The notes under the pieces: model-generated
What the model was told of the DNA's origin: nothing
Databases searched by the model: none
Seen by the model: only the letters and a program-made list of their open reading frames with translations
Program-made: the position numbers and the translations under genes
Source of the DNA: a virus
Lineage: Duplodnaviria; Caudoviricetes
Direction: 5' to 3' (one strand)
Length of the DNA stretch: 63,908 bases
Virus record (IMG/VR): IMGVR_UViG_3300032087_005153
Coordinates: 1-63,908 of that record
Part shown: piece after piece, positions 10,920 to 63,470 of the stretch
Layout of the letters: every line of letters starts with the position of its first letter
How positions within the stretch are numbered: position 1 is the stretch's first letter

Positions 10920-12476
10920 ATGGAATTTAATCAACCAAGCGAAATTGTTAAAGATTTAACTTTTGGCAATGACGCTCAGAATAGCATTATGACAGGTGTT
11001 GACAAGCTTGCAAAAGCTGTTGCATCTACAATGGGAGCGTCTGGTAAGTGCGTTATTTATGAAGATGGGCTAGGAAAGCCAATAGTTACAAAAGACGGAG
11101 TGACTGTTGCTAATAGCGTGGTTCTTATGGATCCCGTCGAAAACATCGGCGCAACCCTCATAAAAGAGGCAGCTCAAAAAACAGTAAAGGAAGCGGGTGA
11201 CGGTACTACTACAGCTACCGTCCTCGCACACTCCATTTTAAAAGAATATTGGAATATTGAAAATCCAGATATTCGTAAAATAAAAGAAGACATAAATACG
11301 GCTGCTAAAAAAGTAATTAATTACTTAGAGAGTTCAGCAAAAGAAGTTAAAGCAGGCATGCTCGACCATGTGGCAACAATATCAACTAATAACGATAAAG
11401 AATTAGGTAATATTATTGCTGAAGCCTATAATACTGTTGGTAAAGATGGTGTTGTATTAATGGAAGAATCTGAAACTGATAAAACATATGTCGATACAGT
11501 TGAAGGCGTGCAATTTGACTCAGGGCTGAAGTCACAGCACTTAATTACTGATAAAGAGAAAAATAAAGCTATTTTAGAAGAGCCTCTTGTACTTATCGTA
11601 GATTCTGAAATAGAAACTATAAGAAAAATACAAAGTGTCTTAGAATACGCTATAAAGAATAAAAAAGCTATATTGATTATAGGTAATGTTTCACAACAAG
11701 TGATGTCAGCACTTATAATGAATAAAGTTAAAGGAAATATTAAGGTCAATATAATTGACCCACCTGGTTTTTCAACCATTAGACGAGACATGCTGGATGA
11801 CCTCGCACTTATTACAGGAGCTAAAGTAATAAATGAAGAACTAGGTGATGATCTTGATTTAATTGATGAAAGTTGTTTAGGTATTGCTGCAAAAGTTGTA
11901 ACAGATGAAAATAATACAGTTATTGCTACAAATACTGAAACAGATGAAATTAAAAATCGTATATTAGCAATTGAAAAGCAAATTAAGGAAGAAAAAAATC
12001 CTTATGCTTTGAAAAAGCTTGAACAGCGTAAGGCAATGCTTTCAGGGTCTGTAGGTATTATATATGTAGGTGCAGATTCTAAAATAGAGCTTAAAGAAAA
12101 GAAAGATAGGGTTGAAGATGCTATCTATGCTGTAAAAGCAGCTTTAAAAGAAGGTATTGTTCCAGGTGCAGGTATTGCGTTACATAACGCAGCTGAAAAT
12201 ATTTCAACAAACAATACGCCTGGTGGTAATGTTTTAATGAATGCTATAAAAGCACCATACAAAACAATACTAAATAATGCTGGAATTGAATATGACTCTG
12301 ATCTTAAAAAAGGCTGGGGTATAAATGTTATAACAGGTAAAAAATGTAACCTAATCAAAGATGGTATTATTGATCCTGTATTAGTTACAAAAACTGCATT
12401 AAAAAATGCAATTTCTGTAGCAACAACAATAATGTCTGCTGATTGTGTAATATCTAATGTAAGAGAGCAATCATGA
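10920..12476 (+). CDS. groEL: Chaperonin GroEL (phage-encoded)
   Basis: TKDGVTVA, AGDGTTTATVLA, EKKDRVEDA, EGIVPGAG, GIIDP motifs; no C-terminal GGM tail. Confidence 0.97.
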   Translation: MEFNQPSEIVKDLTFGNDAQNSIMTGVDKLAKAVASTMGASGKCVIYEDGLGKPIVTKDGVTVANSVVLMDPVENIGATLIKEAAQKTVKEAGDGTTTATVLAHSILKEYWNIENPDIRKIKEDINTAAKKVINYLESSAKEVKAGMLDHVATISTNNDKELGNIIAEAYNTVGKDGVVLMEESETDKTYVDTVEGVQFDSGLKSQHLITDKEKNKAILEEPLVLIVDSEIETIRKIQSVLEYAIKNKKAILIIGNVSQQVMSALIMNKVKGNIKVNIIDPPGFSTIRRDMLDDLALITGAKVINEELGDDLDLIDESCLGIAAKVVTDENNTVIATNTETDEIKNRILAIEKQIKEEKNPYALKKLEQRKAMLSGSVGIIYVGADSKIELKEKKDRVEDAIYAVKAALKEGIVPGAGIALHNAAENISTNNTPGGNVLMNAIKAPYKTILNNAGIEYDSDLKKGWGINVITGKKCNLIKDGIIDPVLVTKTALKNAISVATTIMSADCVISNVREQS

Positions 12477-29200: not shown

Positions 29201-32200
29201 TGATCCTGATACTATTTATGAAATTGAAAAATCTATTAAAGGCAGTACAGTAATTGAAGTAGGGGGTCGAGGAAATAAGTTTGAAGAAAAAAATGCGGTA
29301 GGAAATAGAGAAGTTTCAATATTTGCTGCGGATGACCCGCTTAGAAAAACATTAACAATTAATGAATTAAAATCTGCAATTCCAAAATATGGAGATAAAA
29401 ATATTTCAGTAGATATTTTATTTGTAGAAGAAAAAACTAATAAAATAGGATTTACTGAAAATCCTGCTATATTTGAAACTGAGCCGAAAGAAAGCAAAAC
29501 AGATTTAGATATTTATTATGAAACAGAAAAAGCATATCCAGTAAGTGAACACGGTAATGCTCAAGTATTAGAATGGTATAATGCATTTTGTTTTGGTAAT
29601 GGTATTGAATCAAATAGGATTAGAGATGATTTTAATGCTCCTTTTATTGATAACGGAGTAAAAGTTTCAGCAACGATTGCGGAAGAAATAAAAGAAGAGC
29701 ATAAATTTAATGGTATAATATGGTCTGGTATTATTAACTCAAAAACAGGTATAAATAAATCAAATGAGTTTAATGTAGCATTTCCAATAACAAAAGATTT
29801 ATTACCTTCATATGGTAGCATACAAAAGTTGCATACATGGGATGATCAAATTGTAATGTTATGTGAAGACAAAATAGTTAGAGCATATGCAGATAAAGAC
29901 GTATTATACAATGCCGATGGCAATACAAATGTAGTATCAAGTAATAAAGTTATAGGCGATGTAATGCCTTATACCGGTGAATATGGTATATCTAAAAATC
30001 CTGAAAGTTTTGCTTATTATGGATTTAGATGTTATTTTGCAGATAAAACAAGAGGTGTTGTATTAAGATTATCAAAAGATGGTATTGAAGTCATTAGTAG
30101 ATATTTAATGACTAATTTCTTTAAAGAAAGATTTTTTGATGATGGTTGCTATCATGCTGAACCCTTAAGTACAAATATAGTGGGTTCTTATGATAATTAT
30201 AATGATTTATATAATATATCATTTGATGGCTTAGACACTGTTTGCTTTGATGAAGTAGCAAATGGATGGGTAACAAGAAAATCATTTATTCCAGAAAATG
30301 GTATATCATTAAATAATATATATTATACTTATAAAAATGGTGAATTATGGGAGCAAGATTCTAAAGATGCTCTATATAATAATTTTTATAATGAACAATA
30401 TACTTCTAAAATAGAATTAGAAATTAACGACAATCCTTCTGTAATTAAAAAATATAGAACATTATCTTATGAAGGAACAAAAGGGTGGACTGCTAATGTT
30501 ATAACCGATCAGCAGAAATCTTCAACTATGTCTTTTAAAGAAAAAGAAAACAAATATTTTTCTTATATAAAAGGAGAAGAAAAAGATGTAGAAAACTTAG
30601 ATACTAAAAACTTTAATTTTCAAGGATTAGGTGTTGCTAGTGATATTTCAGGAATTGGACCCGCAACAAGTACGGAATTAACTTTTGGTATTTTGCCAAT
30701 TGAAACCAATAGCTATTCTTCTAAAATAACAAAAATTAATAATACAGCAGGGACAGCATTAAATAATACTGTCCAAATAATTATTTCACCTAAGGCTGGG
30801 TATACTTTAAATGCTAATAGTTTTACTACTAAAAATATAACTGCAACACAAAGCGGTGACAATATTTTATTAGACTATACTCACGGAATAGCTTTTCAGC
30901 CCACAAAAAATAAACATATTGACATTTCTTTATGTAAAGTAAATTTTGCATCGAAAAAAACAATAACAGTTTCTGGCTTATATGCATTTAAACCTAATAA
31001 ATGGCTTAATACAGATGTAACAAATGATAGCTTTACTGTAACAGGGCCGCCAAATATTTTAAAAGAAATAAAAACCCGCACAGTAACAGCTAAAAAAGGA
31101 TTTCAAATAGATATTGATAATATAAGTAGTAGTAATCCAAATGTTATTTTAGATATTAAAATAAATAATTTAGAAAAAACAAGTGTAACTATTACTGAAA
31201 AAATTATTATGCCAAGCGCTAATAATGATAACTTTAATTACACTATAACTGTAGACGAAATACAAATACAAGAGCCTAAGAAACAATTATTATTTTCTCA
31301 AATTAATACTAACGATGCTATAAATGATATATTAATTAGGCCATTAGAAATAACTGCAGATCCTGGTTCTGTATTTTCATATAAATTACAAGGCCCTAAT
31401 TCTTTTGAAGAAACAGAATTTGATATAATAGTTAATAACACGGGAAAATACATTAAGGAAGTTATATTACCTTCAAATGCCCCTGGAACTTATACAATAA
31501 CATTAACACCCGGTACAGATACTATAAATGGATCTGATTTTGAAGATATTATTACAATACCCTATTCTGCTAAACAGATAAATAAAATATCATTATTTAC
31601 TGAATTTAATAATACAACAAGTACAGTAAATGAATTTCAAGCATTTACTAATGACGGCATATCGTATAGTTTTTCAAATGAAATTATATTACCTAATGCT
31701 ACTTATTTATTAATAGCCCAGCCAAAATCAAGTGATTTTGTTTATGATAATAAAATTGACGATCCTAGGCTTTTAAATTTATCTTTAAACTTAAATTCAC
31801 AGACTAATACAGCAACATTAACTGGTGTAATACAAATTGATAAAGTAAGTACTTCAAATCAAATAGTTTTATTTTTAGATAGTTTTATTAATGAAGAAGT
31901 AACTTTAAGTATAGATTACAGTAATACTATTTTAGGTGGTGGTGCTACAGGTAATTATAGTATAACACCTTCTGTACCTTATCAAATAACCGACGCCGCA
32001 TTAAATATTCCAACTACAGCGGATTATTATCAATTTACAATAACTCCTGCTGGAGGATATGAGTTTATAAATAATATAAGTAGTCAAGATTTTATAGTAT
32101 CTGATTCAACTAGTGATGTTACTTCAACATATGCTGAAAATGGATCATTAAAAGCTTTGATAGTAAATGATAATTTAGAAATAAGACTTTATCCAAGTAA

Positions 32201-35200
32201 TTTTAAATTACCATCTACAAGTCAAACTATTTATATAAGACCAAATAAAATTATAACACAAGCTGTGACTGCAGCCGCTGGAAATTATAGTATAACATAT
32301 AATCCTCTTGATAATGAAGATAGGTTATTTACTAATACTTTAATTTTAGGTACATTAACAGATACATCAAATCAAAATTTCTTATTTCAAAAAACATTTA
32401 CAATAGATAGAACAGGCCCTGATTTTACAAAAATATTTTCTGCAACAGGCCATGTTGTAAATTTATTAGATAATGAATTAAGTTTAGCTACAGCTGGTAC
32501 TTATACAGATATAAATGGTGATTCAATAACTGTTACAGATTTTATAGAAATTAATACAGATAAAACTGAATTAACATTAAATATATTAGCAAATATAAAT
32601 AGTGTACCTGATAAAAAATTAGGTAGAATAGATTTTGATTTTGCTACTGAAGAGTTGTATACTGTAATAAAACTTAAACAAGGTGGATGTAATACTACGC
32701 AACCAACAATAGAATATAGATTGTATAATATTGATCCATATGATCCAACTCCAAAAATAGGTGCTAAAATTACACAAATACAATCAAATAAAATTGGTGC
32801 TTCATCCGGTGTTACATCATTAGAAAATGAATATAAGATTGATGGAACTGATTTCGTACTAACATTGAAAAAAGATTTTATTACGTCTATAGATTATATA
32901 AAAGATATTCAAAATTGTACAACCACAATCCCAACAATAATTACTGCTGATAATATTATTTCTACATATGGCGATGGTACTATTAAAATTGGTGCAGTAG
33001 CTAATAATCAATATTCTCAATTAAGGTATGAGATGGTTTCAGGAACGGGTATTGTTGGATTTACAGAAGGAATATTAAAAAGTAATACAGGTCAAACACC
33101 TCCGGTGGGTGTGCATAAAATAAAAATATTTGCACAAGAAGTATATATAGCTAGTACTAGAACATTATATGAATATGCTGAAAAAACAATTACTATAACT
33201 GTTAAAAAAGCAAATGTATCAATATCTACTTTAAAAGTTCAAATGACAGAGGGTGATACTGATGATCTTAATTTATATGTAACTACAAATAGTGGTGGGA
33301 TACTTTCTTTTAATACTACATATAATAATATTATATCATTAAATGGATCTTCTATTGATGCTATTGGGGATGGAAATGGTACAGTAAGTGTTTCAGTTGC
33401 AGAAACATCAAATTATAATGCTGGTATTGGGGTAGTTAATGTTGAAATTGCAAAATTTATAGTTCCTATAATTGATTCCGATGGGGATGGCATTCCTGAT
33501 GATCAGGACGCATGGCCATTTGTTGATGACAATGTAGCTTGGAGTTTTGGTGTTGACCAAATGGGTTTAACTAATTTTGTTAAAAAATCAAATGGTGAAT
33601 TAAGCACAATGAACCAAGGTGGAGGAAAAGGTTATTTAGCTGTTTATTCTAGGGTAGCTGACAGATTTAATTATGATAAAAGCCAGCTAACCTGGAAAGC
33701 TTATGTAAGCATAGATCCTGATGACCTAGCTGAATATGGACAATTTGTTAAATTAGACAGGACAACGGGTGTTGTTTCTGATGATCATGATGACAAAACA
33801 GCTATATTAACAGGAGGTGATCCTATAAAATTTACTGTATCAAGATGGATTAATCCTGATTCATCAAAAAGAAAAGCAACTATATATGCAGATATATATT
33901 ATAAAGGCAAATTAGTTAAATCTGGTCTTAATGATGGTAGTATGAAACAAACTGATGATGCTAATTCTTCATCAACTGTATCTTCTACCCCAGCACCTAC
34001 TACTGTTACCGCACCACAAGCTGCTTTAACAACGGCATCATCATCTACACCAGCTCAAACATATATAGACTTTACAGCAAGTAGCTCTAAATCTTCAAAA
34101 GCATTAGCAGAAATTGTACCGCTTTCAAATATAAATGTAGACTACTGGCATAATGGTACTTCGCCAACACCAATTGTAGGTAATAAAATATTTACAACAA
34201 GTAGTGGTAAATCATTAGCTAAATCAGGCTACTATAGAATAAGTGCAACAAAAGGTATGGTACTAAACTCTAGAGGTAGCGTATTACAAATATTTGATAT
34301 TACGGCACAAACAATTTCATCAACTACGCCAATTAGCAATGTGTATAGCATAGATTGTAGTACTATCGGATTTAATGTTAATGTTCAAGAATACACGACC
34401 AATACATGGGATATTAATGCAACACTATTAGGAAACTCTGCTAGTGATGTTGAGGTTATTGATTCAAAAGTTGTATCATTCTTTTTGAATGCAACAGCAG
34501 ATAAAACAATATGGACTAAAACAACGTTTAGAGTAATAAATAGTAGTGCACCTAATTACGATACAGTATTTACTTGTAATAAATTTGCTACATCAACTCC
34601 GTCTCTTTCTAACTTAAGTCAAAACGACGCAAATAGATATGAGCAGGAAATGAGTAATATATTTGAAAATAGCAAACCAAATACTCAAGGAACCCCTAAT
34701 CAAACTACTAATCAAACAACTTCACAGCAAGTTGGTACACCTAGTAGTACAAATACAGCAAAAGATACTACTGAACCGCCAATTATTCAATTTGTTACTA
34801 GTAATACTAGAAAACCTTTAACTGGTGTTAATAATGCAAAACTTTATTTAGAATCAAGATTTAGTAATAATCCTGATGAAAACTATAAAGAATATAAAGA
34901 TGTATTATTATATAGAGGGTCCGAAGTTTATACAAATTATTATACAGGTAGTGCTAGAACTAATGAAAAAGTATATGACGGAATTGGTGGCAATAAACAA
35001 TTCCCTGTTGACACAAATGACAAAGGCTACTACTACGTAATAAGTACTGAACGGGATGGTTTATTCAGCGGTAAATATGTAAGAGCCGGTCAATCTAAAT
35101 TATGGGTAAGAACAAATGCTGGAACAGGAGCAATAAATTATAGAGGAGTTGCAAGAGATCCATTTAATATAGTACAAAATGGTTTTGTAAATATAATGGT

Positions 35201-35486
35201 TAATGAAACTGAATATACTAATTTCTTTATTGTTGATCCATTTAAGAATAATGGTAAACCAAGATCTAATACAGATTTCTTGCCGTCGCTTCCAACAAAA
35301 CCAGAAGACAGAGTGGTTGTTTCTAAATTTTTAGGGGGTAAAACTTATCACAATTATATTCCTTTAACTCTTAAAGTACAAAACGGTGTAATTGTTGATG
35401 CTTATCAGCAACAACATACTAAAGAAACTCACGGAACTTATGATGTTTATGCTCCTAATAAATTTAATCCTTCAATAGAACCTTAA
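26265..35486 (+). CDS. Tail stabilisation (nozzle/muzzle) protein with long C-terminal extension
   Basis: GMMDKDRDERL...YRDALNI N-terminus, LFFTDDLNPPRKINI, GEYGISKNPESFA; Thr/Asn-rich tail with DSDGDGIPD motif. Confidence 0.75.
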   Translation: MAELKHTFIAGMMDKDRDERLVKNGTYRDALNIHISSSEGSDAGAVENLLGNKQLTDLGLSNAQTIGSIPYGLKDKIYWIVTSDNIDGIYEYDQIQKTVVPIIIDTKRNSSELINSLTIQSNEDNELVLSNITASQLKTICGNIPDDTIDEVLVNNNINLSSQDPKLNISIPQNTILRRENKKYVFKNIEYSGQEYGNITITFSFSIKSVLNFSKNNLITGIDIIDDMLFFTDDLNPPRKINISKFKKYTNTPYPNTNGVFQTQTLVQYSEKDANGNIINLTRDFSENDLSVAKKAPMKAPTLELYNSLISGVTEIEKIISFYITSSNGDKEIGIGDNLTISGLTTLPNWNEGDNLELSSYTDDGTGEYLEATAIVKQVLESSIIITLTSRNYAPVKNINYKVSISLVEKDPIHELSFVRFGYRWKYFDGEYSTMSPFSETAFLPKKYQYNAKEGLNLGMENDLRKIILNDFDLGDDTVKEIEILYKETRNQNIYTLKSFRRIDFDNSYEITKERIHSVLPNDQLLRSWDNVPRKAKAQAVTANRIIYGNYTQNYDVYNSPEFGISYLKRSANSNKKTIKSNRTYQVGVAYIDEYNRHSPVLSDQSGSITIAKDKTKETKQFEVRLKNNPPAWAKYFKYYIKDNSGEYYNIAADRFYYDEENGFMYVSFSSNERNKINKDESILLKKEHGSDIAVIDSDNRYKVIEIFNEPPNFVADKKKVVSSLDDVLFTSGYNLSTAGGTLTQIKTENSTPVANYSKIQVKRANQANDPDDSNNSGVPGFLVNELKPGRFIRFDFNGKESQPYEIKSVGVDREDSTEIEITIKDSFNDDVDIIYDRDGNVGNPPVQGHSHGYRLGVRITILEKFSDYKNEEFDGRFFVKLKANNLLKNIFEGDTVDNKDYSILEKLTLFGAPTFSDSKKDRRTRPPRKIDLNPEYPLFLSHSGTASNYTFKVEELNTKVDDKYLDLFINGTKFYFSNDPDTIYEIEKSIKGSTVIEVGGRGNKFEEKNAVGNREVSIFAADDPLRKTLTINELKSAIPKYGDKNISVDILFVEEKTNKIGFTENPAIFETEPKESKTDLDIYYETEKAYPVSEHGNAQVLEWYNAFCFGNGIESNRIRDDFNAPFIDNGVKVSATIAEEIKEEHKFNGIIWSGIINSKTGINKSNEFNVAFPITKDLLPSYGSIQKLHTWDDQIVMLCEDKIVRAYADKDVLYNADGNTNVVSSNKVIGDVMPYTGEYGISKNPESFAYYGFRCYFADKTRGVVLRLSKDGIEVISRYLMTNFFKERFFDDGCYHAEPLSTNIVGSYDNYNDLYNISFDGLDTVCFDEVANGWVTRKSFIPENGISLNNIYYTYKNGELWEQDSKDALYNNFYNEQYTSKIELEINDNPSVIKKYRTLSYEGTKGWTANVITDQQKSSTMSFKEKENKYFSYIKGEEKDVENLDTKNFNFQGLGVASDISGIGPATSTELTFGILPIETNSYSSKITKINNTAGTALNNTVQIIISPKAGYTLNANSFTTKNITATQSGDNILLDYTHGIAFQPTKNKHIDISLCKVNFASKKTITVSGLYAFKPNKWLNTDVTNDSFTVTGPPNILKEIKTRTVTAKKGFQIDIDNISSSNPNVILDIKINNLEKTSVTITEKIIMPSANNDNFNYTITVDEIQIQEPKKQLLFSQINTNDAINDILIRPLEITADPGSVFSYKLQGPNSFEETEFDIIVNNTGKYIKEVILPSNAPGTYTITLTPGTDTINGSDFEDIITIPYSAKQINKISLFTEFNNTTSTVNEFQAFTNDGISYSFSNEIILPNATYLLIAQPKSSDFVYDNKIDDPRLLNLSLNLNSQTNTATLTGVIQIDKVSTSNQIVLFLDSFINEEVTLSIDYSNTILGGGATGNYSITPSVPYQITDAALNIPTTADYYQFTITPAGGYEFINNISSQDFIVSDSTSDVTSTYAENGSLKALIVNDNLEIRLYPSNFKLPSTSQTIYIRPNKIITQAVTAAAGNYSITYNPLDNEDRLFTNTLILGTLTDTSNQNFLFQKTFTIDRTGPDFTKIFSATGHVVNLLDNELSLATAGTYTDINGDSITVTDFIEINTDKTELTLNILANINSVPDKKLGRIDFDFATEELYTVIKLKQGGCNTTQPTIEYRLYNIDPYDPTPKIGAKITQIQSNKIGASSGVTSLENEYKIDGTDFVLTLKKDFITSIDYIKDIQNCTTTIPTIITADNIISTYGDGTIKIGAVANNQYSQLRYEMVSGTGIVGFTEGILKSNTGQTPPVGVHKIKIFAQEVYIASTRTLYEYAEKTITITVKKANVSISTLKVQMTEGDTDDLNLYVTTNSGGILSFNTTYNNIISLNGSSIDAIGDGNGTVSVSVAETSNYNAGIGVVNVEIAKFIVPIIDSDGDGIPDDQDAWPFVDDNVAWSFGVDQMGLTNFVKKSNGELSTMNQGGGKGYLAVYSRVADRFNYDKSQLTWKAYVSIDPDDLAEYGQFVKLDRTTGVVSDDHDDKTAILTGGDPIKFTVSRWINPDSSKRKATIYADIYYKGKLVKSGLNDGSMKQTDDANSSSTVSSTPAPTTVTAPQAALTTASSSTPAQTYIDFTASSSKSSKALAEIVPLSNINVDYWHNGTSPTPIVGNKIFTTSSGKSLAKSGYYRISATKGMVLNSRGSVLQIFDITAQTISSTTPISNVYSIDCSTIGFNVNVQEYTTNTWDINATLLGNSASDVEVIDSKVVSFFLNATADKTIWTKTTFRVINSSAPNYDTVFTCNKFATSTPSLSNLSQNDANRYEQEMSNIFENSKPNTQGTPNQTTNQTTSQQVGTPSSTNTAKDTTEPPIIQFVTSNTRKPLTGVNNAKLYLESRFSNNPDENYKEYKDVLLYRGSEVYTNYYTGSARTNEKVYDGIGGNKQFPVDTNDKGYYYVISTERDGLFSGKYVRAGQSKLWVRTNAGTGAINYRGVARDPFNIVQNGFVNIMVNETEYTNFFIVDPFKNNGKPRSNTDFLPSLPTKPEDRVVVSKFLGGKTYHNYIPLTLKVQNGVIVDAYQQQHTKETHGTYDVYAPNKFNPSIEP

Positions 35487-38000: not shown

Positions 38001-41000
38001 ATGTTCGAATTAGACGGAAACCAATATACGTTAGAACAAGTTCAAGCTGCGGCTTATAAGTCGGGTATGATGTTCGATGATTATGTCCAAAAATATAAAT
38101 TTAAAGAATTGGGAAAGACAACTCCCACATCACCGGGTGCGGATGTGGAGGAAACTGCAGCACCCGAGTTGACCGTTACGGAATCACCATCGGTAGATAT
38201 TTCTTTGGAATCACCTCAAACAGGAACAACTGATTCTACATTAATAACACCTCCTCGCAAAAAAACTCCATCTGAATTAAGGATAGATGCTACAAGGAAG
38301 TCAATGGCAATGGCTAATCCTATAGCTAGTATTATGCCTGACTTTATGATACCCGTATTAGCCGATTGGACAGCTATGACAACCGAATTAGGGGCAGGGG
38401 TTGTAGATACTGCTGAAATATTATATGAATTAGGATTGTCTGGAATAAGTAATGAAACTTTTGATAGAATATCTCGGGAACAAAGAATAGACATGTCAGA
38501 GGTTTATGAGGGAGTTGATGCTCTTAGAAATATTCGAGAAAAAAAATATGATGAGCAAGGAAATGAATTAGACGCTATAGGCTTATGGCAAGCCGGTAGA
38601 AAAAGTGAATCAGCCCAACAATTTATTAGTGAAGCAATAGGTTCTTTGCCTTCTACGGTTTTATCATATATAATACCCGGTGGTGGTTCAGCTATAATAG
38701 GTATTGGAACATTTGGATCAGAATTTGAAAGAAATTTAAAAGAAAGACCAGAAGAAACTGGAATGGCAATGTTGAAAAATGCTTTTATAAAAGGTAGTGC
38801 TGAAGCTGTATTTGAATTGCTTGGTGGTAAAACTTTTAAAACATTAACAAAGGCTGCTTCAAAAGGAATGACAGAAAAAGCTGTTAAAGAAATGACACGC
38901 ACTGGAATTCCTTATGCTCTTCGCAAAATATTAGGAATAACCGGGCAAGCGGCAATAGAGGCTGGCACAGAAGCATTGACAGGGGTTACACAATTAGCAG
39001 CTGATGAAATGTTTTTTGACGACGAAATAGAAGCTGCACAATATTGGCGAACAATTATTCATAGCGGAGTAGTTGGAGGATTAATGGGTGGTGGTATTAC
39101 GGCTGGAACGGTTGGTACTCAAGTAGCATTAACTGGTGACAGAAAAAAAGCAGCAATGGCTATAATTGCACCTAAAGAATGGAGAGCTGAACAAAAAGAA
39201 ATTAGTAGAAATATTGATCGTGCAGCAAGAGACTATCAAAACGCGCCTGATAATAAAAAAGCATATTTTAAAAATAAAATAGAAGTATTAGAACAACGTT
39301 TAAATGGTAGAGCAGAAAGGTTAGCTAAAGTTTGGGATGGTTTAACTAGAGCAGAAAAAATAGAATATGCAAGATTAGTAGATGAAACTAATTCTCAATT
39401 AGATATTATAGGTAATGCTAAATATACTAATCAAGCCCAAAAAGAAGCACAAATACTTTTAGACGGTGCTTATTCTGAAATGCAGGCCATATTAGGTAAA
39501 GATAATATAAATATAGAAGATGAGCAAGCTCTTTCAAGAATAATTAAAAGCGGAGTTAGTATAGCAGAAGCAGTTGGAGTTGCTAAAAAAGTTTTAAAAA
39601 ACATAAATATACAAAATATTTCTAATGAAGTATTTCAGCAAGTATCAAAAGCGGTAACTGGTAAAAAAAGTGCATCCGACGCTATATTTTTTGATGGAAA
39701 TAATATATTTATAAATAAAGATATTTCAGCAGCTACAGAACAAACAAATGTATTAGGCCACGAACTATTACATTATGTCATGGCTAAACGGTTTAATGTT
39801 AGCGATGAATCTTTAGGTCCACTAGTAAACAGCTTTAAAGATTATTTAAAACAAACTCAGCCAGAAATACTAGAAAGAATAGAGCAAAGACTTGAAAAAG
39901 CTTATGAAGGTGAAGCGCCTTTAGAAGAATATTTAAATCTTTTTTCAGATATTATAGCTAGAGAAAAAATAATAGTTGATGAAAGTATTACTGATAAAAT
40001 AAAAAATTCAGCAACTCGTCTTTTAAATAGTTTTGGATTTGGTTCGGTTAAATTAGAAACAGGGAAAGATGTTTTTGATTTTTTAAGAAATTATACTAAA
40101 AATGTTAATAATCTAAAGTTTAAACAGCTTGGTATTGATATTACATCTGATAAAATAGGAAAAGCTATTCAAAAAGATGTTAGAGAATCAAAGTCGGTAG
40201 CTTCAGAAAAAGTACAGGAAATATACGAAGCGCAAGGGGCGGCTAATGCTATGGATATTATAGATGAGTTTAGGCCTATAACAAATAAAATAGTAAACAG
40301 ATATAAAGATGTTCCTGGATTTGAATTTCAATTATTAAGAGATGAAATAGAAACTGGTAAGCGGGGTATACTTGATATGATCATGAGCTACACACCTGAA
40401 AAAGCTAAAGGTGCACCACTAGCTGGATTTATAAATAAATTTTTACCAGCAAGAGCTATTGAAGCTGCAAACCGTATATTAAATACAGAATTTACATTAG
40501 ATGTAACCGAAGCTAAGGGAATAACAGATACTGCTACTGAAGAAACTATAGAAGCTGCTGATGAAGCCAAAATAGCTGATGAAATAAAAAGCTTGCGAAA
40601 AGAAATTGGACTTCCTGAAGAGCTTGTAAATGCCGTTAAAAACGCTGTAATAAAAACATTTGGGACTAAACTTCCAAATCCACAAGATCCTAAGTTTAGA
40701 TTAGAATTACAAAGAAGATTTAGAATTGAGCTTAAAAAGCCATTAGCTAAGTTTGTTGGTAAGCAAGCTGACTATGAATCTTTTTTACGTAATAATTTTC
40801 AGTCTATATATAATAAATTACCCCAGTCTTTAATTAATAGAAGATTTAAAGATTTTCAGGAGCCGGTACTTGATAAGAATGGTAAGCATGTAAGAGAAAA
40901 AACCGCTGAAGGTAATAAAGTATATACTAAAAAGAAAATTACTCCAGCAGAATGGGTTAAATACTTTTTAGGTACAGATGTTGGAAGATCAACTCAAGGC

Positions 41001-44000
41001 ACTAGAAAAACAGCAATAGTTGAAGCAGTTGCAGAAGAAATTGCATTTGATGCTACAATGGAAATTTTGCAAAGTCCTGATGTAATAAATAAATATCAAG
41101 ACATAGCTGGTATAACAGGTGAAGTATTACCTGAAAACTTTAAAGCTATTATAGCTAAACAAATAGATAGAGCTGAAGACTTTAAATTTTCTAAAAGTTT
41201 GCCCAATATAGCTAAAGAAGAATATAATTTAGAACAACAAGAATTAGCTAAGATACTAGATAAAAATAATTTAAATAGTTTATCTAATAAATATTCTTTA
41301 TTATCTGATAATATAATTTATGAAGCAGATCCTGCTAATATTAGATTTAGTTTAACAACTAAAGCAGATGGCAAATGGACGGCAGATCAATTAAACCCGC
41401 TTGATGAGAGCAGAGGAATATATAAATTTAAAGTAGGTGAAATAGATTATGAAATAAACGCATTTAAAGATCCTTTAAATTATAATTACGACATATTTGA
41501 GCAAACAGAAGGCATTGAAGATGGAGCCATTAATAATGATCCAAAATCATGGGGTATGACTTTTGCGTCCGCAACTACGCAAAGGGTTAATATAACAGGA
41601 TATGCATTAAAAGGCCTTACTAATCAGTTTAAAGTATTGGGGACTGTAGCTAATGCTACTATAGATTTAATTAAAAAAGAAAAATTAAATTCTATAACAT
41701 TTACTGCTAAAGAAGAAAGTAGAAAAAGATTATATAGATCTTTAAATCAAAAGTTTGCTAATGAATTAGGATGGAAAACATATGATTATCAAGCCACCGT
41801 ACCAGATGGTTCAGAAACAATATTTATAGCTTATAACCCTAAAGCTTTTAATGTTGAGCCACAAATTACAACACCTCCCCCAATAAGATTTTCAAATTCA
41901 AATTCAAAATTTAATGTTACTGCCAAAAAATTATTAACTCCTCAGGGATGGGCGGAATGGAGTAATGCTAATTATGAAGGGGCAAAGGTTTTACAAGATA
42001 AAATTGGTAATATTAAAACTAAATTAGGATCTCAAAGACCATCTTATATAATAAGTGAAAAAAGAATTAAAGGCTTTGATAAATTAACAAATAAAGAAAA
42101 ACAAATATTAAGAGAAAAAATAAATAACCTTAAAGAATCAATAATAGCTTATGAAGCAAAAACTGATTTTAATATATTAAAGCCCAAAGAGTCATTTGGA
42201 AATCCAGCTAAAAAATTCGGGCGTAATGCTACGGAAATTTTTAATAATATAAAAAACGGCAATATATTTAAATTACAAAATACATATTCAAGAATATATG
42301 ATAATATGTGGGAAAAATATTATGATATATTAGAAGAAGACTCTAATATGTTTGATTTTCTTGAATCAACTTTGCAAACTTCTAATGATGATGTTTCTCA
42401 TTGGCATAGATTAGGCGCTACATTTTTAGGTTTTGATCCTACTGCTTTAGAAGATTTTTTAACAGATAAAAATGGAAATAAAATATTAAAAACTATTTAT
42501 ACAAAACAAGGCAAAAAACAAATTCCAATAGTAAGAACTTTTGAATATGAGCATGCTGTACAAAATCATATTCAATGGAAAAGAGTATTAGATGCCGCTA
42601 AGCGCTTTGCTAAAAATAAAAATAAAAAAGGTTTTTTAGATTATCTTAAAAAGTCTAAAGAAAATTATGTTTTAATAGCAATGTCTATTACTGACTCCAA
42701 AAAAATTAATGAAGCAGGCTATGCCCATGTAATGCCAAAAAATTGGAAAAAATGGGTTGATAGGTATATTGCTTCTAATATTGATTTAAATAAAATAGTA
42801 TATATAAATTATTCAAATAATAATGCCACTATTGATGGTAATATTGCTTCTAATTTTGTAACAAGAGAATCTAAATCATTAAATAGAGATTTTAATAAAA
42901 TATTAGAGCAGTCAACAGGTATAGATTGGAAAACACGTTTTTCACCTGTTCAAGCTCGTATAATGGGTAAAGGTAAAGGTAAAAAGTTTTTTATACCTTA
43001 TTCTGCCGATGATTTTGTTGGATTATTATACACAACTTTAGCTGATAAAAAAGTTGGTGAACAGCAAATGGAATGGTATAAAGAAAACTTACTTAGACCA
43101 TTTTCTCGCGGTATTCAACAATATGAAGCTGCAAAACAAAAAGCTTTACGCGAATGGCAAATCCTTAAAAAAGAAGCTAAAAAAGATGTGCCTGGTGGTT
43201 TGGATAAAAAGAATGCTACTGGACTTACTAATCAAGATGCTGTTAGGTTATATATATGGAGAACACAAGGTATGGAAATACCAGGTGTAAAAGGCGGTGC
43301 AGCATTTGTAAATGAAAATTTAAAAATAGTTAGAAAAAATCCTGAACTAAAAGCATTTGCCGAAAGACTAATGGCTTTAAACCCAGAAGGTTATCCAGAG
43401 CCGGCTACGAATTGGGATTCAGGTGACATTACTACAGACATTGTATCATATATAAACAATGTTAAACGTAGTGAATTTTTAACTGAATGGAAAGAAAATG
43501 TTGATGAAATATTTTCTGATCAAAACAAAGAAAAGCTAAGAGCTTTATATGGAGATAATTATATTGAAGCATTAGAAGATATACTTTATAGAATGCGTAC
43601 GGGTACAAACCGTAAGTTTGGTATAAGTAAAGTTGAAAGACAATTTATGGATTGGACTAATAATTCTGTTGGTGCAATAATGTTCTTTAATGCTAGATCT
43701 GCAGTACTTCAAACATTATCGGCTGTTAACTTTATAAACTTTACAGATAATAATCCAATCAATGCTGGTGTTGCATTTTTCAATCAAAAACAATATTGGA
43801 ATGATTTTTCTGAATTATTTAATTCTGACTTTTTAAAGCAAAGAAGATCTGGATTACAAACCGATGTTAACGCTGATGAAATTGCTAGAGCGGCTAAAGG
43901 CGCTAAAAATACAGCAAGGGCAGTATTAAGTGCTTTATTAAAATTTGGATTTACACCAACGCAAATAGCTGATTCATTTGCAATTGCATCTGGTGGAGCA

Positions 44001-44909
44001 ACATTCTATCGCAATAGAATAAAAACATATTTAAAAGAAGGGATGTCAGAACAAGATGCTAAAGCTAAAGCATTTACTGATTTTCAAGAAATTGCAGAAG
44101 AAACACAGCAGTCTGCACGACCTGATCGTATATCATTACAACAAGCAAGCTCACTAGGACGTCTTATATTAGCTTTTGGTAACACACCTATGCAATATGC
44201 CCGCTTAACTAAAAAAGCCACATTAGATTTAATTAATGGGCGCGGAGATTGGAAGACAAATATGAGTAAGATTATGTATTATAGTGTAATACAGAATATT
44301 ATATTCTCTGCTTTACAGCAAGGATTATTTGCTTTATTATTTGATGATGAAGATGATGATAAACAAAAATCAAGATTATTTAGAATAGGTAATAGTAGTT
44401 TAGATACTTTATTACGCGGGGTTGGTGTTTACGGGGCAGCGGCGGCTACTTTAAAAAATATGGTCCTTGAAATTATAGATCAACAAAAATCTGGTAGACC
44501 TGATTATAGTAAAATAGCTATTGAAGCAACAGCAATATCACCTCCGATAAATTCTAAATTAAGAAAACTTGAATCTGCCGGTAAAACTTTTACGTATAAG
44601 CAATCAAAAGAAAAAGTATTTACTGAAGGATTTAGTTTAGAAAATCCTGCATTTTTAGCCGGTGGTAAAGTTATATCAGCTTTAACAAATTTACCTGCTG
44701 ATCGTGTTGTACAAAAAGCAGATCATATTTATACAGCAATGCAACCTGAAACAGAATTATGGCAATCAATTGCATTATCACTCGGGTGGAGTGAATGGGA
44801 TCTTAATATGATTGAAAACAAAACTCCTCAAAAAAATTTAACTACAAAGCAGTTACAAAATTTAATGAAAAGAAATAACAATCTTAAAAAATTAATGAAA
44901 AGGAAATGA
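38001..44909 (+). CDS. Giant polyvalent ejection protein with zincin and sigma-region-2-like domains
   Basis: 2302 aa; Gly-rich hydrophobic segments, HELLH at 39759-39773, sigma-like segment about 40263-40480. Confidence 0.65.
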   Translation: MFELDGNQYTLEQVQAAAYKSGMMFDDYVQKYKFKELGKTTPTSPGADVEETAAPELTVTESPSVDISLESPQTGTTDSTLITPPRKKTPSELRIDATRKSMAMANPIASIMPDFMIPVLADWTAMTTELGAGVVDTAEILYELGLSGISNETFDRISREQRIDMSEVYEGVDALRNIREKKYDEQGNELDAIGLWQAGRKSESAQQFISEAIGSLPSTVLSYIIPGGGSAIIGIGTFGSEFERNLKERPEETGMAMLKNAFIKGSAEAVFELLGGKTFKTLTKAASKGMTEKAVKEMTRTGIPYALRKILGITGQAAIEAGTEALTGVTQLAADEMFFDDEIEAAQYWRTIIHSGVVGGLMGGGITAGTVGTQVALTGDRKKAAMAIIAPKEWRAEQKEISRNIDRAARDYQNAPDNKKAYFKNKIEVLEQRLNGRAERLAKVWDGLTRAEKIEYARLVDETNSQLDIIGNAKYTNQAQKEAQILLDGAYSEMQAILGKDNINIEDEQALSRIIKSGVSIAEAVGVAKKVLKNINIQNISNEVFQQVSKAVTGKKSASDAIFFDGNNIFINKDISAATEQTNVLGHELLHYVMAKRFNVSDESLGPLVNSFKDYLKQTQPEILERIEQRLEKAYEGEAPLEEYLNLFSDIIAREKIIVDESITDKIKNSATRLLNSFGFGSVKLETGKDVFDFLRNYTKNVNNLKFKQLGIDITSDKIGKAIQKDVRESKSVASEKVQEIYEAQGAANAMDIIDEFRPITNKIVNRYKDVPGFEFQLLRDEIETGKRGILDMIMSYTPEKAKGAPLAGFINKFLPARAIEAANRILNTEFTLDVTEAKGITDTATEETIEAADEAKIADEIKSLRKEIGLPEELVNAVKNAVIKTFGTKLPNPQDPKFRLELQRRFRIELKKPLAKFVGKQADYESFLRNNFQSIYNKLPQSLINRRFKDFQEPVLDKNGKHVREKTAEGNKVYTKKKITPAEWVKYFLGTDVGRSTQGTRKTAIVEAVAEEIAFDATMEILQSPDVINKYQDIAGITGEVLPENFKAIIAKQIDRAEDFKFSKSLPNIAKEEYNLEQQELAKILDKNNLNSLSNKYSLLSDNIIYEADPANIRFSLTTKADGKWTADQLNPLDESRGIYKFKVGEIDYEINAFKDPLNYNYDIFEQTEGIEDGAINNDPKSWGMTFASATTQRVNITGYALKGLTNQFKVLGTVANATIDLIKKEKLNSITFTAKEESRKRLYRSLNQKFANELGWKTYDYQATVPDGSETIFIAYNPKAFNVEPQITTPPPIRFSNSNSKFNVTAKKLLTPQGWAEWSNANYEGAKVLQDKIGNIKTKLGSQRPSYIISEKRIKGFDKLTNKEKQILREKINNLKESIIAYEAKTDFNILKPKESFGNPAKKFGRNATEIFNNIKNGNIFKLQNTYSRIYDNMWEKYYDILEEDSNMFDFLESTLQTSNDDVSHWHRLGATFLGFDPTALEDFLTDKNGNKILKTIYTKQGKKQIPIVRTFEYEHAVQNHIQWKRVLDAAKRFAKNKNKKGFLDYLKKSKENYVLIAMSITDSKKINEAGYAHVMPKNWKKWVDRYIASNIDLNKIVYINYSNNNATIDGNIASNFVTRESKSLNRDFNKILEQSTGIDWKTRFSPVQARIMGKGKGKKFFIPYSADDFVGLLYTTLADKKVGEQQMEWYKENLLRPFSRGIQQYEAAKQKALREWQILKKEAKKDVPGGLDKKNATGLTNQDAVRLYIWRTQGMEIPGVKGGAAFVNENLKIVRKNPELKAFAERLMALNPEGYPEPATNWDSGDITTDIVSYINNVKRSEFLTEWKENVDEIFSDQNKEKLRALYGDNYIEALEDILYRMRTGTNRKFGISKVERQFMDWTNNSVGAIMFFNARSAVLQTLSAVNFINFTDNNPINAGVAFFNQKQYWNDFSELFNSDFLKQRRSGLQTDVNADEIARAAKGAKNTARAVLSALLKFGFTPTQIADSFAIASGGATFYRNRIKTYLKEGMSEQDAKAKAFTDFQEIAEETQQSARPDRISLQQASSLGRLILAFGNTPMQYARLTKKATLDLINGRGDWKTNMSKIMYYSVIQNIIFSALQQGLFALLFDDEDDDKQKSRLFRIGNSSLDTLLRGVGVYGAAAATLKNMVLEIIDQQKSGRPDYSKIAIEATAISPPINSKLRKLESAGKTFTYKQSKEKVFTEGFSLENPAFLAGGKVISALTNLPADRVVQKADHIYTAMQPETELWQSIALSLGWSEWDLNMIENKTPQKNLTTKQLQNLMKRNNNLKKLMKRK

Positions 44910-59260: not shown

Positions 59261-59461
59261 TTATTTAAATTTATAAAGTGAATTATGAGTGAATTTAGTT
59301 TTATGTAGTTTTTTACCAGTGAATATTATATCACGATTTTTACGATAGTCATTATCAGTAAATGGCTTACAATAGCCGTGTACTTCAGTTTCAGCTTTCC
59401 ATTTAGCTGCATTAGTTTTCTTTTTATTTTCCATATATTGTTTTAATTCTTGTATTGTCAT
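59261..59461 (-). CDS. Hypothetical protein
   Basis: ORF in operon. Confidence 0.55.
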   Translation of the reverse strand: MTIQELKQYMENKKKTNAAKWKAETEVHGYCKPFTDNDYRKNRDIIFTGKKLHKTKFTHNSLYKFK

Positions 59462-59588
59462 TATGATATTTGTTTTATATAGTTTAGTGCTGCTTTTTCT
59501 GTATTAAAATCTTTATACCCAGTATATATGTCATTCTTTTTCCAAAACACTCGATATTGATTATTAATTGTCATTTTAATTTTTGTTT

Positions 59589-59831
59589 TCATTGTGTTAA
59601 TTCTTTAGCCATATATGTTGTATACGGCAGATTTGTTTTCATGGGTTCAATTAATTCTGCCATACGTAGCCATACTCTTAGATTGCTAATGTCACCCATA
59701 ACTAATTTATAAGATAGCTCGGGCCAGGCAGCGTGGTGTCTGTTTCTGAAATGAGTACGTACACTTAATCTGTAATGTGCTATTTTAGATATTAGCTTAG
59801 CCTCAATTCGATCGTCGATTGGATTTGTCAT
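59589..59831 (-). CDS. Hypothetical protein
   Basis: ORF directly downstream of tRNA-like RNA. Confidence 0.55.
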   Translation of the reverse strand: MTNPIDDRIEAKLISKIAHYRLSVRTHFRNRHHAAWPELSYKLVMGDISNLRVWLRMAELIEPMKTNLPYTTYMAKELTQ

Positions 59832-59850
59832 AGTATTTAATTTAATTTAG

Positions 59851-59937
59851 TGGATGTGGGAGGAATCGAACCTCCGTTTAGAAGACTTGACAACAATGCT
59901 TTCGCTTGACAACAATGTCTATCTGCCTATCACACCC
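59851..59937 (-). ncRNA. tRNA-like RNA resembling an isolated tmRNA tRNA-like domain (Ala identity, no anticodon)
   Basis: Acceptor GGGUGUG/CACAUCC+A with G3.U70; T-arm GGAGG-UUCGAUU-CCUCC; no D-stem; long arm capped by GAAA. Confidence 0.75.
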
Positions 59938-59942
59938 AATAG

Positions 59943-60006
59943 CCGAGGGCACAGCTCATGACCTGTATTTCTAACTAGTATGTATCGCTCGTCAGCAATC
60001 CCTCGG
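59943..60006 (-). ncRNA. Putative structured RNA element
   Basis: CCGAGGG/CCCUCGG closing stem and inner UGAC/GUCA stem; GC-rich intergenic island. Confidence 0.4.
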
Positions 60007-60017
60007 TGCCGTTAATA

Positions 60018-60088
60018 TTGTTAGCTAAGCAAAGCCGCCCCAGAAAATGTCTGGTATTTGTTCAAGGCTGCTCTACTTAACTTAACAA
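60018..60088 (-). ncRNA. Putative long-hairpin small RNA
   Basis: About 21-bp stem whose mismatches become G.U pairs on the - strand; 11-nt bulge; CCAGA/UCUGG apical hairpin. Confidence 0.5.
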
Positions 60089-60260
60089 ACACACAAATGA
60101 ATGAAAGGTATATTATAGTTGCTGGTTTAATATGTAGTTTATAACTTGACTAGGCGTACCAGTCATTATACGTTCTTCGTCGTATAGATCTTTGAACGTT
60201 AGTGTATAAAACTTTGGTTTGTGTATAGCAAATTGTGTGTTAAATTTATTTCCAGCCATT

Positions 60261-60491
60261 TTATTTTGTGTTTGTTGTTATAATTTCTTTTTCTTTTTCA
60301 AGCTTATCAATTACTTCATGCAGCTTAACTGTTATGTAGTCAACAATGTCTTGCACGTCAAAGCCGTCATTCCATACTGTAGGTACAAACTTTTCAAGCA
60401 TATAGCGTGTATCCCAGTCAGCATTTGTTAATTGTTCAATTCGATTGATTTTGTTTTGTAAATCTAAATAGTTTTGTAATTGTGTGTTCAT
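60261..60491 (-). CDS. Early hypothetical protein
   Basis: Starts 34 nt downstream of promoter motif. Confidence 0.65.
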   Translation of the reverse strand: MNTQLQNYLDLQNKINRIEQLTNADWDTRYMLEKFVPTVWNDGFDVQDIVDYITVKLHEVIDKLEKEKEIITTNTK

Positions 60492-60524
60492 AATATTTAA
60501 TTTTAATTTGTTTGTTATTCGTTA

Positions 60525-62220: not shown

Positions 62221-62875
62221 ATTATTTATAGTTTATAATTCCTCTTATATCTTTTTCGTCAAAGTCCCAGCGATTTAATATACGCTTGACCATTTCATCT
62301 TCAGAGACGCCTTGGCGTTCCCATTTGTCTATTAATTCTACAATGTATTCTACTAACATATATATTCTTTTTTAATTCTATTTAGTTCGTCATAACGCTG
62401 GTTGATTAACCGGCTGTGTATAGCAAGAAGCTTTTCTTGTTGGTCAAGTGTTAATCCTAGACCTTCAATTTTTAGGTCTTGTATCATATCTATTTTACCT
62501 TCTATATTGTGTAGTCTTTCAAATATCATAGCTTACTAAATTTTTTAATTAATTCTAATTCTATTTTAAATAATTCTTGTTGTGTTTGTGTTAGCTCTGT
62601 TAGTCTATCAACGTCAGCCAGTGTTTTGACATAATCTTTAAGGTTGAAATAAAGTCTGTCGATTTGTTGTTGTGTTAATTCTACTTTCATTTTATATCTT
62701 TTATTAAATTGTGTATTTCTTTTGTGTTTGTTAGATGATAGTTGGAGTGATATTTGTCATTGACTTTTATTACTGTGTCAATTAGATAATCAAATTCTTT
62801 GTCAGTGTAGTAAAGCTCAATTGTTATTTTTTTAGTGTGTACTTTTTTCATTGTGTATTTGTTTGTTGTTCGTTT

Positions 62876-62909
62876 ATATTATCCGATTATGATCGTGTTA
62901 AGCTTGTAA
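62876..62909 (-). promoter_or_regulatory. Early promoter-like motif
   Basis: + strand ATATTATCC-N8-TCGTGTT-N4-TTGTAA; - strand ATG at 62851. Confidence 0.8.
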
Positions 62910-63470
62910 TCTGGTATGGGCATAGTAGACTTTAGTTGTGTCAATATGATTCCAGTGGGCATTTCTTGCAAAGGTTACTCTTGTTACACCTTTAGAACCA
63001 AGGCCATAGAAAGTCATTTGCTTTTCAGTTTGTTTGGCTTGTCTATCCAGTTTCTTTTGTAATTTAGATTTCATAGTGTGTGTGTTTTATTTGTTAATGT
63101 TTTTAGTTAGAATGGTATAATACGTTGCTTGTGTGTATGTTAAAAGCTTTTTTAGTTAAAGTTATTAATCATTTTATCAATTTTGCTTAATATTCCCCAG
63201 CACTGATCGATGGCTGTTGGATCGTTGTCTGAATTAGCATAGTCTTGTAATGCTTGAGTCAGTATAGTTAGTTCAGTTTGTGTGAATTTCATATTATTAT
63301 CTATTTACTTCTCTTTGGTATTGTAATTCTTTTAAGTATATTTTATTTAGCTTGTCCAGTACATGCTCTATTGAGTCTATGTAGTTATAGTGATTTTTGT
63401 CAGATACTTTGTAAATTATTTTTTTAAGTTGTTTAGTAGTAGACATATTATTTAATTTTTAAATTCTTAT

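Follow-up and report, generated by a model that had tools for sequence, protein, structure and literature searches.

A tmRNA gene reduced to its tRNA-like domain, and its family, in a podophage with a probable Flavobacteriaceae host

The complete viral record IMGVR_UViG_3300032087_005153 (63,908 bp, analysed over its whole length and here called the window) carries on its minus strand an 87-nucleotide (nt) element, the mini-tmRNA, which is the subject of this study. Model scores, covariation and homologues confirm, at the level of sequence, that the element is a phage gene for a tag-less transfer-messenger RNA (tmRNA), of which only the tRNA-like domain (TLD) is left. A preliminary description, made by a model from the letters of the window, had proposed an alanine-identity tmRNA TLD that has neither an anticodon nor a tag frame. 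This proposal is upheld by covariance model scores and by family members that grade into a full-length phage tmRNA. All parts named in that description, i.e., the acceptor stem, G3.U70, the discriminator A73, the T-arm, the unpaired D-region and a hairpin built from a direct repeat, are present in the minus-strand sequence and are arranged as follows.

59851–59937, minus strand: the whole TLD-only tmRNA-like RNA, 87 nt from G1 to the discriminator A (sequence; alignments to RF00023 and to our family model R1).
59931–59937, minus strand: acceptor 5′ strand GGGTGTG (G1 to G7, with G3 at 59935), pairing at 7 of 7 positions with 59852–59858.
59921–59930, minus strand: stemless D-loop analogue, 10 unpaired nt that hold GG (sequence).
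59883–59920, minus strand: 38-nt hairpin with a GAAA loop that replaces the anticodon arm, as a stub of helix 2 (folds).
59905–59917, minus strand: copy 1 of the 13-nt direct repeat CATTGTTGTCAAG (exact match).
59886–59898, minus strand: copy 2 of the 13-nt direct repeat CATTGTTGTCAAG (exact match).
59876–59882, minus strand: 3′ linker from the hairpin to the T-arm, 7 nt, compared with 3 nt in most homologues (homologue folds).
59859–59875, minus strand: T-arm with a 5-bp stem and the 7-nt loop TTCGATT (sequence).
59852–59858, minus strand: acceptor 3′ strand CACATCC, with U70 at 59854 (sequence, covariation).
59848–59850, minus strand: CTA trailer after the discriminator A (59851), with no encoded CCA (sequence).

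First, we focus on the class of the RNA. The Rfam models for tmRNA (RF00023) and tRNA (RF00005) have a gathering score of 47 bits and a cut-off of 29 bits, respectively. In cmscan at permissive thresholds, RF00023 aligns the mini-tmRNA end to end (model positions 1–374 with 274 internal positions deleted) at 38.3 bits and an E-value of 2e-15 per genome. RF00005 matches the T-arm only (59859–59879, 13.7 bits), and ARAGORN reports neither a tRNA nor a tagged tmRNA anywhere in the window. Of the checks suggested in the preliminary description, the Infernal comparison comes out in favor of the tmRNA model. As controls, ordinary tRNA-Ala genes reach 27–28 bits with the tmRNA model, and the tRNA model gives 49.6 bits for a true tRNA that one of our patterns caught. 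A viral tRNA at L158 1923–2003 (49.6 bits, tRNA model; L numbers denote loci) combines G3.U70 with a normal D-arm and a long, odd anticodon region. No Rfam family reaches its gathering score in the window. The mitochondrial tmRNA model (RF02544) finds nothing in the phage at E ≤ 10, and matches to RT-6, snoRNA, plastid and permuted-tmRNA models at E-values of 0.24–3.6 were judged to be chance. The family model R1 scores the mini-tmRNA at 62.1 bits.

The canonical mRNA-like domain with its resume codon, tag frame, stop codon and pseudoknots is absent, as the D-region and the 3′ linker are separated by only 38 nt. What is present are the features of the TLD-only subclass, namely an acceptor with G3.U70 and A, a canonical T-arm, a stemless D-loop with GG and the lack of an anticodon arm. 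The acceptor comprises 7 bp including G3.U70 and U4-A69. The fold drawn in the preliminary description, with its symmetric hairpin, is the optimum at −25.3 kcal/mol once nt 8–17 are held single-stranded; the unconstrained minimum free energy fold (−27.4 kcal/mol) pairs part of the D-region instead. Compared to shuffles, the whole RNA folds with z = −3.08; together with the end-to-end tmRNA alignment and the covariation, this sets the element apart from a chance fold. A repeat as long as the one in the inner region is reached by 0 of 200 shuffles of that region, and CATTGTTGTCAAG has no further copy anywhere in the genome at 0–1 mismatch.

The proposed acceptor and T stems covary across related phages. 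In an alignment of 26 sequences, pairing holds in all 312 cells of the two stems, compared to 45–55% in slid controls. Compensatory changes occur in 4 of the 12 pairs (two of seven in the acceptor, two of five in the T-stem), and the observed covariation score is reached by 0 of 500 shuffles. Moreover, the TLD is conserved far above the surrounding DNA. Pair 4:69 varies among the 26 sequences (C-G in 22, A-U in 2, G-C in 1 and U-A in 1), and pair 3:70 is G.U in 25 of them. R1, our own covariance model, was built from 26 sequences, omitting the duplicate L111, the remnant L118 and tRNAs. It gives 42 matches in the window and the 80 related loci described below, all on the early-gene strand, and 41 of these were tabulated after one match cut by a contig end had been dropped. 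Among the 34 strong matches (≥40 bits with a good acceptor stem), position 3:70 is G.U in 30, A-U in 3 and G-C in 1. The search pattern fixes the 3′ strand in a further set of 73 RNAs, of which 71 have G as the free 5′ base. The alanine identity pair G3.U70 appears to be under selection, because a single transition would yield a stronger Watson-Crick pair, yet G.U is retained. The role of G3.U70 in recognition by alanyl-tRNA synthetase (AlaRS) is established knowledge.

The D-region stretch contains GG in 39 of the 41 tabulated matches, and CTA follows the discriminator in 38. The consensus of the family is similar to that of the Rfam tmRNA model. It had been noted at the outset that CCA is not fully encoded, and this is borne out by the discriminator A followed by CTA. 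As the same trailer is found in the tRNA-Met genes of the relatives, in the tmRNA of Cellulophaga phage phi38:1 and in the TLD-only tmRNA of mycobacteriophage DS6A, the missing CCA would be no defect and may point to CCA addition after trimming.

The same data bear on whether the element could be a decayed ordinary tRNA, the case named in the preliminary description as the one that would overturn it, or an attP site that duplicates the 3′ end of a host ssrA gene. The acceptor and T-arm are tRNA-like, and tmRNA genes are frequent integration sites of phages according to a passage in PMC11915505. The tRNA model, however, recognizes the T-arm only, ARAGORN finds nothing and an anticodon arm is present in no homologue, all of which contradicts a tRNA origin. 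An attP copy is opposed by the 5′ acceptor strand, which is present and covaries, and by a genome with direct terminal repeats in which no integrase was found. Furthermore, the main 3′ end of the family is found in no bacterial tmRNA, and all six matches to it in prokaryote genomes are mini forms on contigs of metagenome-assembled genomes (MAGs). We therefore consider both origins extremely unlikely.

A related possibility is that the gene no longer functions and is what remains of a full-length phage tmRNA after the loss of its middle part. Decay does occur in the family: L002 has G3-C70 and no GG, L118 retains the 3′ half only, and about half of the relatives have no gene at all. However, approximately 90 distinct copies retain all 12 stem pairs and do so with compensatory changes, and the TLD is conserved well above the DNA around it; the evidence for purifying selection is already strong. 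A relic is thus very improbable.

How large is the family? As relatives, we took the best 80 of 339 viral contigs found by their primase/helicase and searched all 80. Approximately 90 distinct homologues of 68–188 nt were found in related viral contigs. Searching whole records with RF00023 yields an end-to-end mini match of 72–178 nt in 25 of the 80, a count that leaves out three tRNA-Met matches, matches to the T-arm only and the 3′ remnant L118. R1 reaches at least 40 bits at 29 of the 80 loci. Among the 30 near-complete relatives (≥90%), 13 carry the mini-tmRNA by RF00023 and two more by R1. A search for one exact 3′ half of 25 letters matched 85 stretches of viral contigs, and the 80 loci listed yield at least 81 copies. 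A pairing 5′ strand lies within 260 nt in 81 of 81, and these copies amount to 73 unique RNAs of 71–188 nt.

The copy number and size of the RNA vary further. Five loci hold a second, weaker copy at a distance of ~1.5 kb, and a tandem pair of copies is present in one record. A hairpin-less form of ~43 nt, with a 6-bp acceptor containing A3-U70, a GG loop and a T-arm, lies downstream of the main copy, ~1.5 kb away, in L064 (3984–4078), L074 (3694–3800), L077 (4187–4284) and L078 (3526–3632). A 56-nt relative of this reduced form (L026 2851–2906) is the sole match in its locus. L118 1501–1595 (minus strand) consists of a T-arm and a 3′ acceptor strand, has no 5′ partner within 900 nt and is followed by a tRNA-Met; it is a decayed mini-tmRNA remnant. 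Weak partial tmRNA matches at L105, L108 and L119–L121 were dropped, as ARAGORN finds nothing there. A possible short tag frame, seen by eye only in the two homologues of greatest length (146 and 178 nt), was not retained, since ARAGORN calls no tmRNA there.

Beyond the 80 relatives, TLD-only forms of 72–77 nt were observed in the viral contigs L157 (3667–3743, 47.2 bits), L162 (1041–1117, 47.2 bits) and L159 (7092–7163, 40.4 bits), one of which is GC-rich. The TLD-only form may be more widespread among phages than the literature suggests. The six prokaryote-genome matches to the main 3′ end lie on MAG contigs labelled Aliivibrio (L123–L126) and Bacteroidetes (L122 and L127), and the normal tmRNAs of these MAGs end differently. 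One 56-kb MAG contig has two mini-tmRNA copies ~70 nt apart. These contigs are probably phage contigs that were binned into MAGs. The exact 3′ end of the window mini-tmRNA has no match in viral contigs, the sole collection searched for it, and a 1.1-kb region of the window has no blastn match among cultured phages. For a member of the main type, the 794 phage records that match give nothing but pieces of the T-arm, and none covers at least 80% of its length. Five cultured or published relatives were tested and contain no mini form and one full tmRNA; a cultured phage bearing the mini-tmRNA family was not found in these searches. The window stretch itself is present in full in 14 DNA metagenome runs from at least eight studies.

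The one full tmRNA points to the origin of the family. Cellulophaga phage phi38:1 carries a 362-nt tmRNA (NC_021796.1, 26803–27164, minus strand, 87.6 bits; also locus L146 1503–1862), with an ARAGORN-predicted tag of 22 residues whose end differs from the usual Ala-Ala. The record leaves this tmRNA unannotated, and a “hypothetical protein” (gp041) is called across it on the opposite strand. For the Calle phages, which are sisters of phi38:1, a passage in PMC8776804 reports one tmRNA. An 80-nt member of the mini-tmRNA family, L082, scores 65 bits and thus lies above the cut-off of RF00023. In acceptor, D-region, T-arm and CTA, L082 is closely similar to the phi38:1 tmRNA and also similar to tmRNAs from Bacteroidetes MAGs; the window copy is more diverged than L082 from full tmRNAs. 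A full-length tmRNA of the phi38:1 type is likely to be the ancestral state. As the simplest account of its history, we infer that a phage-borne tmRNA of Bacteroidota type lost its middle and then diverged.

The TLD encloses a single inner hairpin, for which homologues were folded with nt 8–15 kept open. It closes in 26 of 26 aligned RNAs, starts 9–17 nt past the acceptor stem and ends 1–4 nt before the T-stem in 25 of 26, the exception being the window with 7 nt. A closing helix of at least five contiguous pairs is found in 67 of 85 unique RNAs, compared to 26% of shuffles, and is made up of 56 different helix sequences. Beyond the closing helix, hairpin length and sequence are hypervariable. 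There are at least 31 hairpin groups among 91 unique RNAs, a rough lower bound given that single linkage was permissive and one cluster has 29 members. The hairpin sequence of the window occurs in no other record among the family matches. The larger hairpins look as if sequence had been inserted into the tip of a smaller one. The same hairpin is present in L086 and L112, which differ in acceptor, D-region and T-stem, and in L096, L098 and L110 the loop sequence is kept while the stem covaries. Two hairpin types unrelated to that of the window likewise contain a direct repeat of a quasi-palindrome that pairs into a helix of two-fold symmetry. Exact repeats of 10–13 nt are found in 6 of 85 unique RNAs, compared to 0 of 200 shuffles for each. 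Judged from these sequences, the hairpins behave as modules.

This modularity raises the question of whether the RNA is a natural scaffold of tRNA type, in which the TLD provides processing, stability or delivery and the variable hairpin is a protein-binding or antisense payload; in the window, the two-fold symmetric helix could seat a dimeric protein. Such a scaffold would account for a near-invariant TLD around wholesale differences of the inner hairpin, for one hairpin on different TLD alleles, for kept loops on covarying stems and for symmetric repeats that recur across unrelated hairpin types. A scaffold needs neither G3.U70 nor a tmRNA-type D-region, yet both are conserved. Moreover, the proteins of the clade are only 77–92% identical, so that an unconstrained hairpin would diverge past recognition anyway. 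No target was found; the window repeat matches nothing else in the genome significantly, and the window hairpin by itself is of modest stability (−7.8 kcal/mol), only marginally above shuffles, of which 35 of 500 equal it. In addition, the ~43-nt forms exist without any hairpin. We regard a scaffold of this kind as fairly unlikely. A more far-reaching view, in which the constant TLD chassis docks on the tRNA/tmRNA machinery of the host and carries the hairpin as a functional cassette that can be exchanged, so that the RNA would not merely be a tag-less tmRNA, is possible but doubtful. If it were true, these marine phages would run a natural “tRNA-scaffold” platform that delivers or stabilizes various small RNA modules, such as protein traps, dimeric-protein sites or guides.

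For the function, we lean slightly beyond an even chance toward a mini-tmRNA that engages host AlaRS and SmpB in competition with host tmRNA, so that tagging at stalled ribosomes would fail. The underlying biology of the TLD, i.e., charging by AlaRS and binding of EF-Tu and SmpB, is treated in a review (PMC8012679). In this model, the mini-tmRNA would be transcribed along with the early genes and matured by host tRNA enzymes, with RNase P acting at G1, 3′ trimming past the discriminator and addition of CCA. Host AlaRS would charge it via G3.U70 and A73, host SmpB might bind at the site of the missing anticodon arm and EF-Tu would deliver the RNA to stalled ribosomes. There, it would compete with host tmRNA for SmpB, EF-Tu and the stalled ribosomes themselves. 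Tagging of stalled proteins might thereby be blocked or bypassed during infection, either as dominant-negative inhibition or as tag-less, dead-end rescue. As it has no resume codon, the mini-tmRNA could only compete with host tmRNA. The conservation of G3.U70 next to pairs that change freely suggests that alanine charging matters and hence that the RNA enters the ribosome rather than solely acting as a sponge for SmpB.

Several observations weigh against this proposal. The score of 38.3 bits lies below the gathering score of RF00023. The gene is accessory and missing from about half of the near-complete relatives; of the seven closest relatives with both flanking genes, three have no mini-tmRNA at the site, and in the one nearest by primase (92% identity) the copy is decayed, showing G3-C70 and lacking GG. 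A few copies have A3-U70 (three), G3-C70 (one) or other acceptors, and therefore charging would not be required of every copy. No SmpB gene was found in the window, so that the proposed mechanism would depend wholly on the host. Four metatranscriptome runs gave no contig over 59833–59951, a result that, with contigs only, is neutral on the transcript. The benefit of blocked tagging to a lytic phage is conjecture.

Alternatively, the RNA might act on host defense, as a decoy or trigger for proteins that sense the shape of tRNA or tmRNA, such as defense helicases that contain SmpB-like domains, RNase R or nucleases directed at tRNA. It would soak up such proteins rather than act on ribosomes. 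An arms race would be in keeping with the patchy presence of this accessory gene and with the rapid turnover of its hairpin. CoCoNuT restriction systems are predicted, in a passage of PMC10542128, to contain SmpB-like OB folds, and a phage anti-CRISPR operates with t(m)RNA fragments according to a passage of PMC11662646. These links to the literature are analogies, however, and neither a defense system nor a host has been identified for this phage. Anticodon nucleases would have no anticodon loop to cut, and the conservation of G3.U70 indicates AlaRS rather than a nuclease. We consider a decoy unlikely.

The mini-tmRNA gene lies in a 281-nt gap between two small early open reading frames (ORFs; 60113–60259 and 59589–59831). 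Of the same seven closest relatives, three carry the mini-tmRNA in this gap. In other relatives, it adjoins tRNA-Met and tRNA-Gln genes. The neighboring small proteins have generic domains only (HTH, DnaA C-terminal domain, KTSC, ERF), none of which is linked to RNA, and the two flanking ORFs are uninformative. The gap is a mosaic of further conserved structured elements, which we list together with a nearby sequence motif.

59943–60006, minus strand: element C, an outer stem with two inner hairpins, directly upstream of the mini-tmRNA.
60018–60088, minus strand: element B-prime, a strong fold common to the window and L005.
L014 4493–4572, L005 4121–4199 and L004 2370–2428: element A, ~75 nt, at the same intergenic spot in relatives and not in the window.
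60084–60096, minus strand: exact copy of the motif TTGTGTGTTTGTT, upstream of the RNA island and conserved in relatives.
62580–63141, plus strand: TTGTGTGTTTGTT and near copies.

Element C has compensatory changes in 7 of 15 predicted pairs (six sequences), is also present in relatives that have no mini-tmRNA and matches no Rfam family. At the site of B-prime, relatives hold a different element, B. The whole 175-nt gap folds with z = −3.4 compared to shuffles. In the metatranscriptomes, for which 59300–60500 was examined, one contig of one run covers 59952–60114, in libraries that may hold DNA. Its loose end at 60114 reads like the reverse complement of element A. The contig suggests that a related strain is present in this run. 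A scan for sigma-70-type promoters around the gene found no more sites than in shuffles, and the host group uses other promoters. TTGTGTGTTTGTT is enriched (13 matches with up to two mismatches, compared to 3.55 expected) and clusters in the early region; it was not called a promoter, as there is a single exact copy on the gene strand.

The position of the gene allows yet another interpretation, in which the tRNA-like fold serves only as punctuation for processing, i.e., as a site for RNase P or RNase Z or as a block to exonucleases in an early polycistronic transcript and the structured RNAs next to it. The mini-tmRNA does sit between two small early ORFs and right after two structured elements, it adjoins tRNA genes in relatives and its CTA trailer is common to phage tRNAs. 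However, a minihelix of acceptor and T-arm would suffice for this purpose, and punctuation explains neither G3.U70 nor the D-region of tmRNA type, nor would it account for the tandem copies or for descent from a full tmRNA. Punctuation is hence quite unlikely.

The genome that carries the candidate competitor of host tmRNA has direct terminal repeats and a G+C content of ~32%. It encodes a large terminase, GroEL (10920–12476), a ribonucleotide reductase, a primase/helicase and two giant proteins. The latter have 3073 and 2302 residues (26265–35486 and 38001–44909, plus strand). Neither an integrase nor a reverse transcriptase nor, by ARAGORN, a tRNA gene was found in the window, and a link to retroelements was dropped because there is no reverse transcriptase. 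The terminase is closest to those of podophages of Flavobacterium, Cellulophaga, Tenacibaculum and Maribacter (33–62% identity), and this kinship makes a marine member of the Flavobacteriaceae the probable host.

TLD-only tmRNAs are curiosities in print; here, they form a conserved and abundant gene family of widespread marine Flavobacteriia podophages. The natural variation within the family bears on whether tag-less tmRNAs need charging, for which the retention of G3.U70 is an argument. Furthermore, the series of reduction from a full tmRNA via a TLD with a hairpin to the ~43-nt forms makes the minimal requirements for engagement of SmpB and the ribosome testable. If the mini-tmRNA blocks or bypasses tagging, it would represent a phage tactic against bacterial ribosome rescue.

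Finally, we compare the mini-tmRNA with known systems. It has the TLD features and the end-to-end alignment in common with bacterial tmRNA (RF00023), from which it differs in lacking a resume codon, a tag frame and a pseudoknot and in its score below the gathering score. Engineered tRNA scaffolds are tRNA-like chassis used for expressing recombinant RNA in bacteria. The phage RNA resembles them in combining a constant chassis with an arbitrary hairpin at the position of the anticodon; these scaffolds are a man-made tool, however, and a payload role of the phage hairpin would be hypothetical. Jakobid mitochondrial tmRNAs (RF02544) and some plastid tmRNAs have likewise lost the mRNA-like domain and kept an alanine-type TLD. 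In contrast to the window RNA, these tmRNAs are organellar and mostly encoded by permuted two-piece genes, and the RF02544 model is unmatched in the phage. According to passages in the 2025 description of a tmRNA database (PMC11915505), tmRNAs without a coding sequence (CDS) in mitochondria and plastids are thought still to work with SmpB, and nine sequences out of 97,179 are classed as “standard, no CDS,” with 79 sequences coming from phages.

Among phage RNAs, the tmRNA of phi38:1 is similar in acceptor, D-region, T-arm and CTA trailer and belongs to a distantly related Flavobacteriia podophage (TerL 37% identical). Unlike the window RNA with its 38 nt in the middle, it has pseudoknot regions and a predicted tag. 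The mycobacteriophage Bxz1 group is placed with the full-length phage tmRNAs. The closest likeness in form is found in a list by Hudson et al. (2014; PMC4131195), which contains the entry “Mycobacterium phage DS6A (TLD only).” The same source, in a passage citing Mao et al. (2009), mentions that a similar molecule was reported to inhibit tmRNA, perhaps by titrating SmpB. Titration of SmpB, the first functional idea of the preliminary description, thus matches the published reading of the earlier phage example. Scored here with RF00023, the DS6A RNA reaches 43.2 bits and is thus below the cut-off of 47. It is a phage RNA of ~83 nt that resembles the window RNA in its 7-bp acceptor containing G3.U70, its D-region with GG and no stem, its single hairpin and its T-arm, in the CTA after the discriminator A, in the missing tag frame and in a score under the Rfam cut-off. 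Unlike the window phage, DS6A is an unrelated, GC-rich actinophage, and its RNA has an independent origin. DS6A is the one phage example named in the passages cited here, whereas the present family comprises approximately 90 sequences with a hypervariable hairpin, tandem or second copies and ~43-nt forms. In the literature that we searched on phage tmRNA-like RNAs, there is no description of this family. The TLD-only kind as such is already known; what is new here, relative to the literature that we searched, is the lineage, the size of the family and the hypervariable, exchangeable hairpin.

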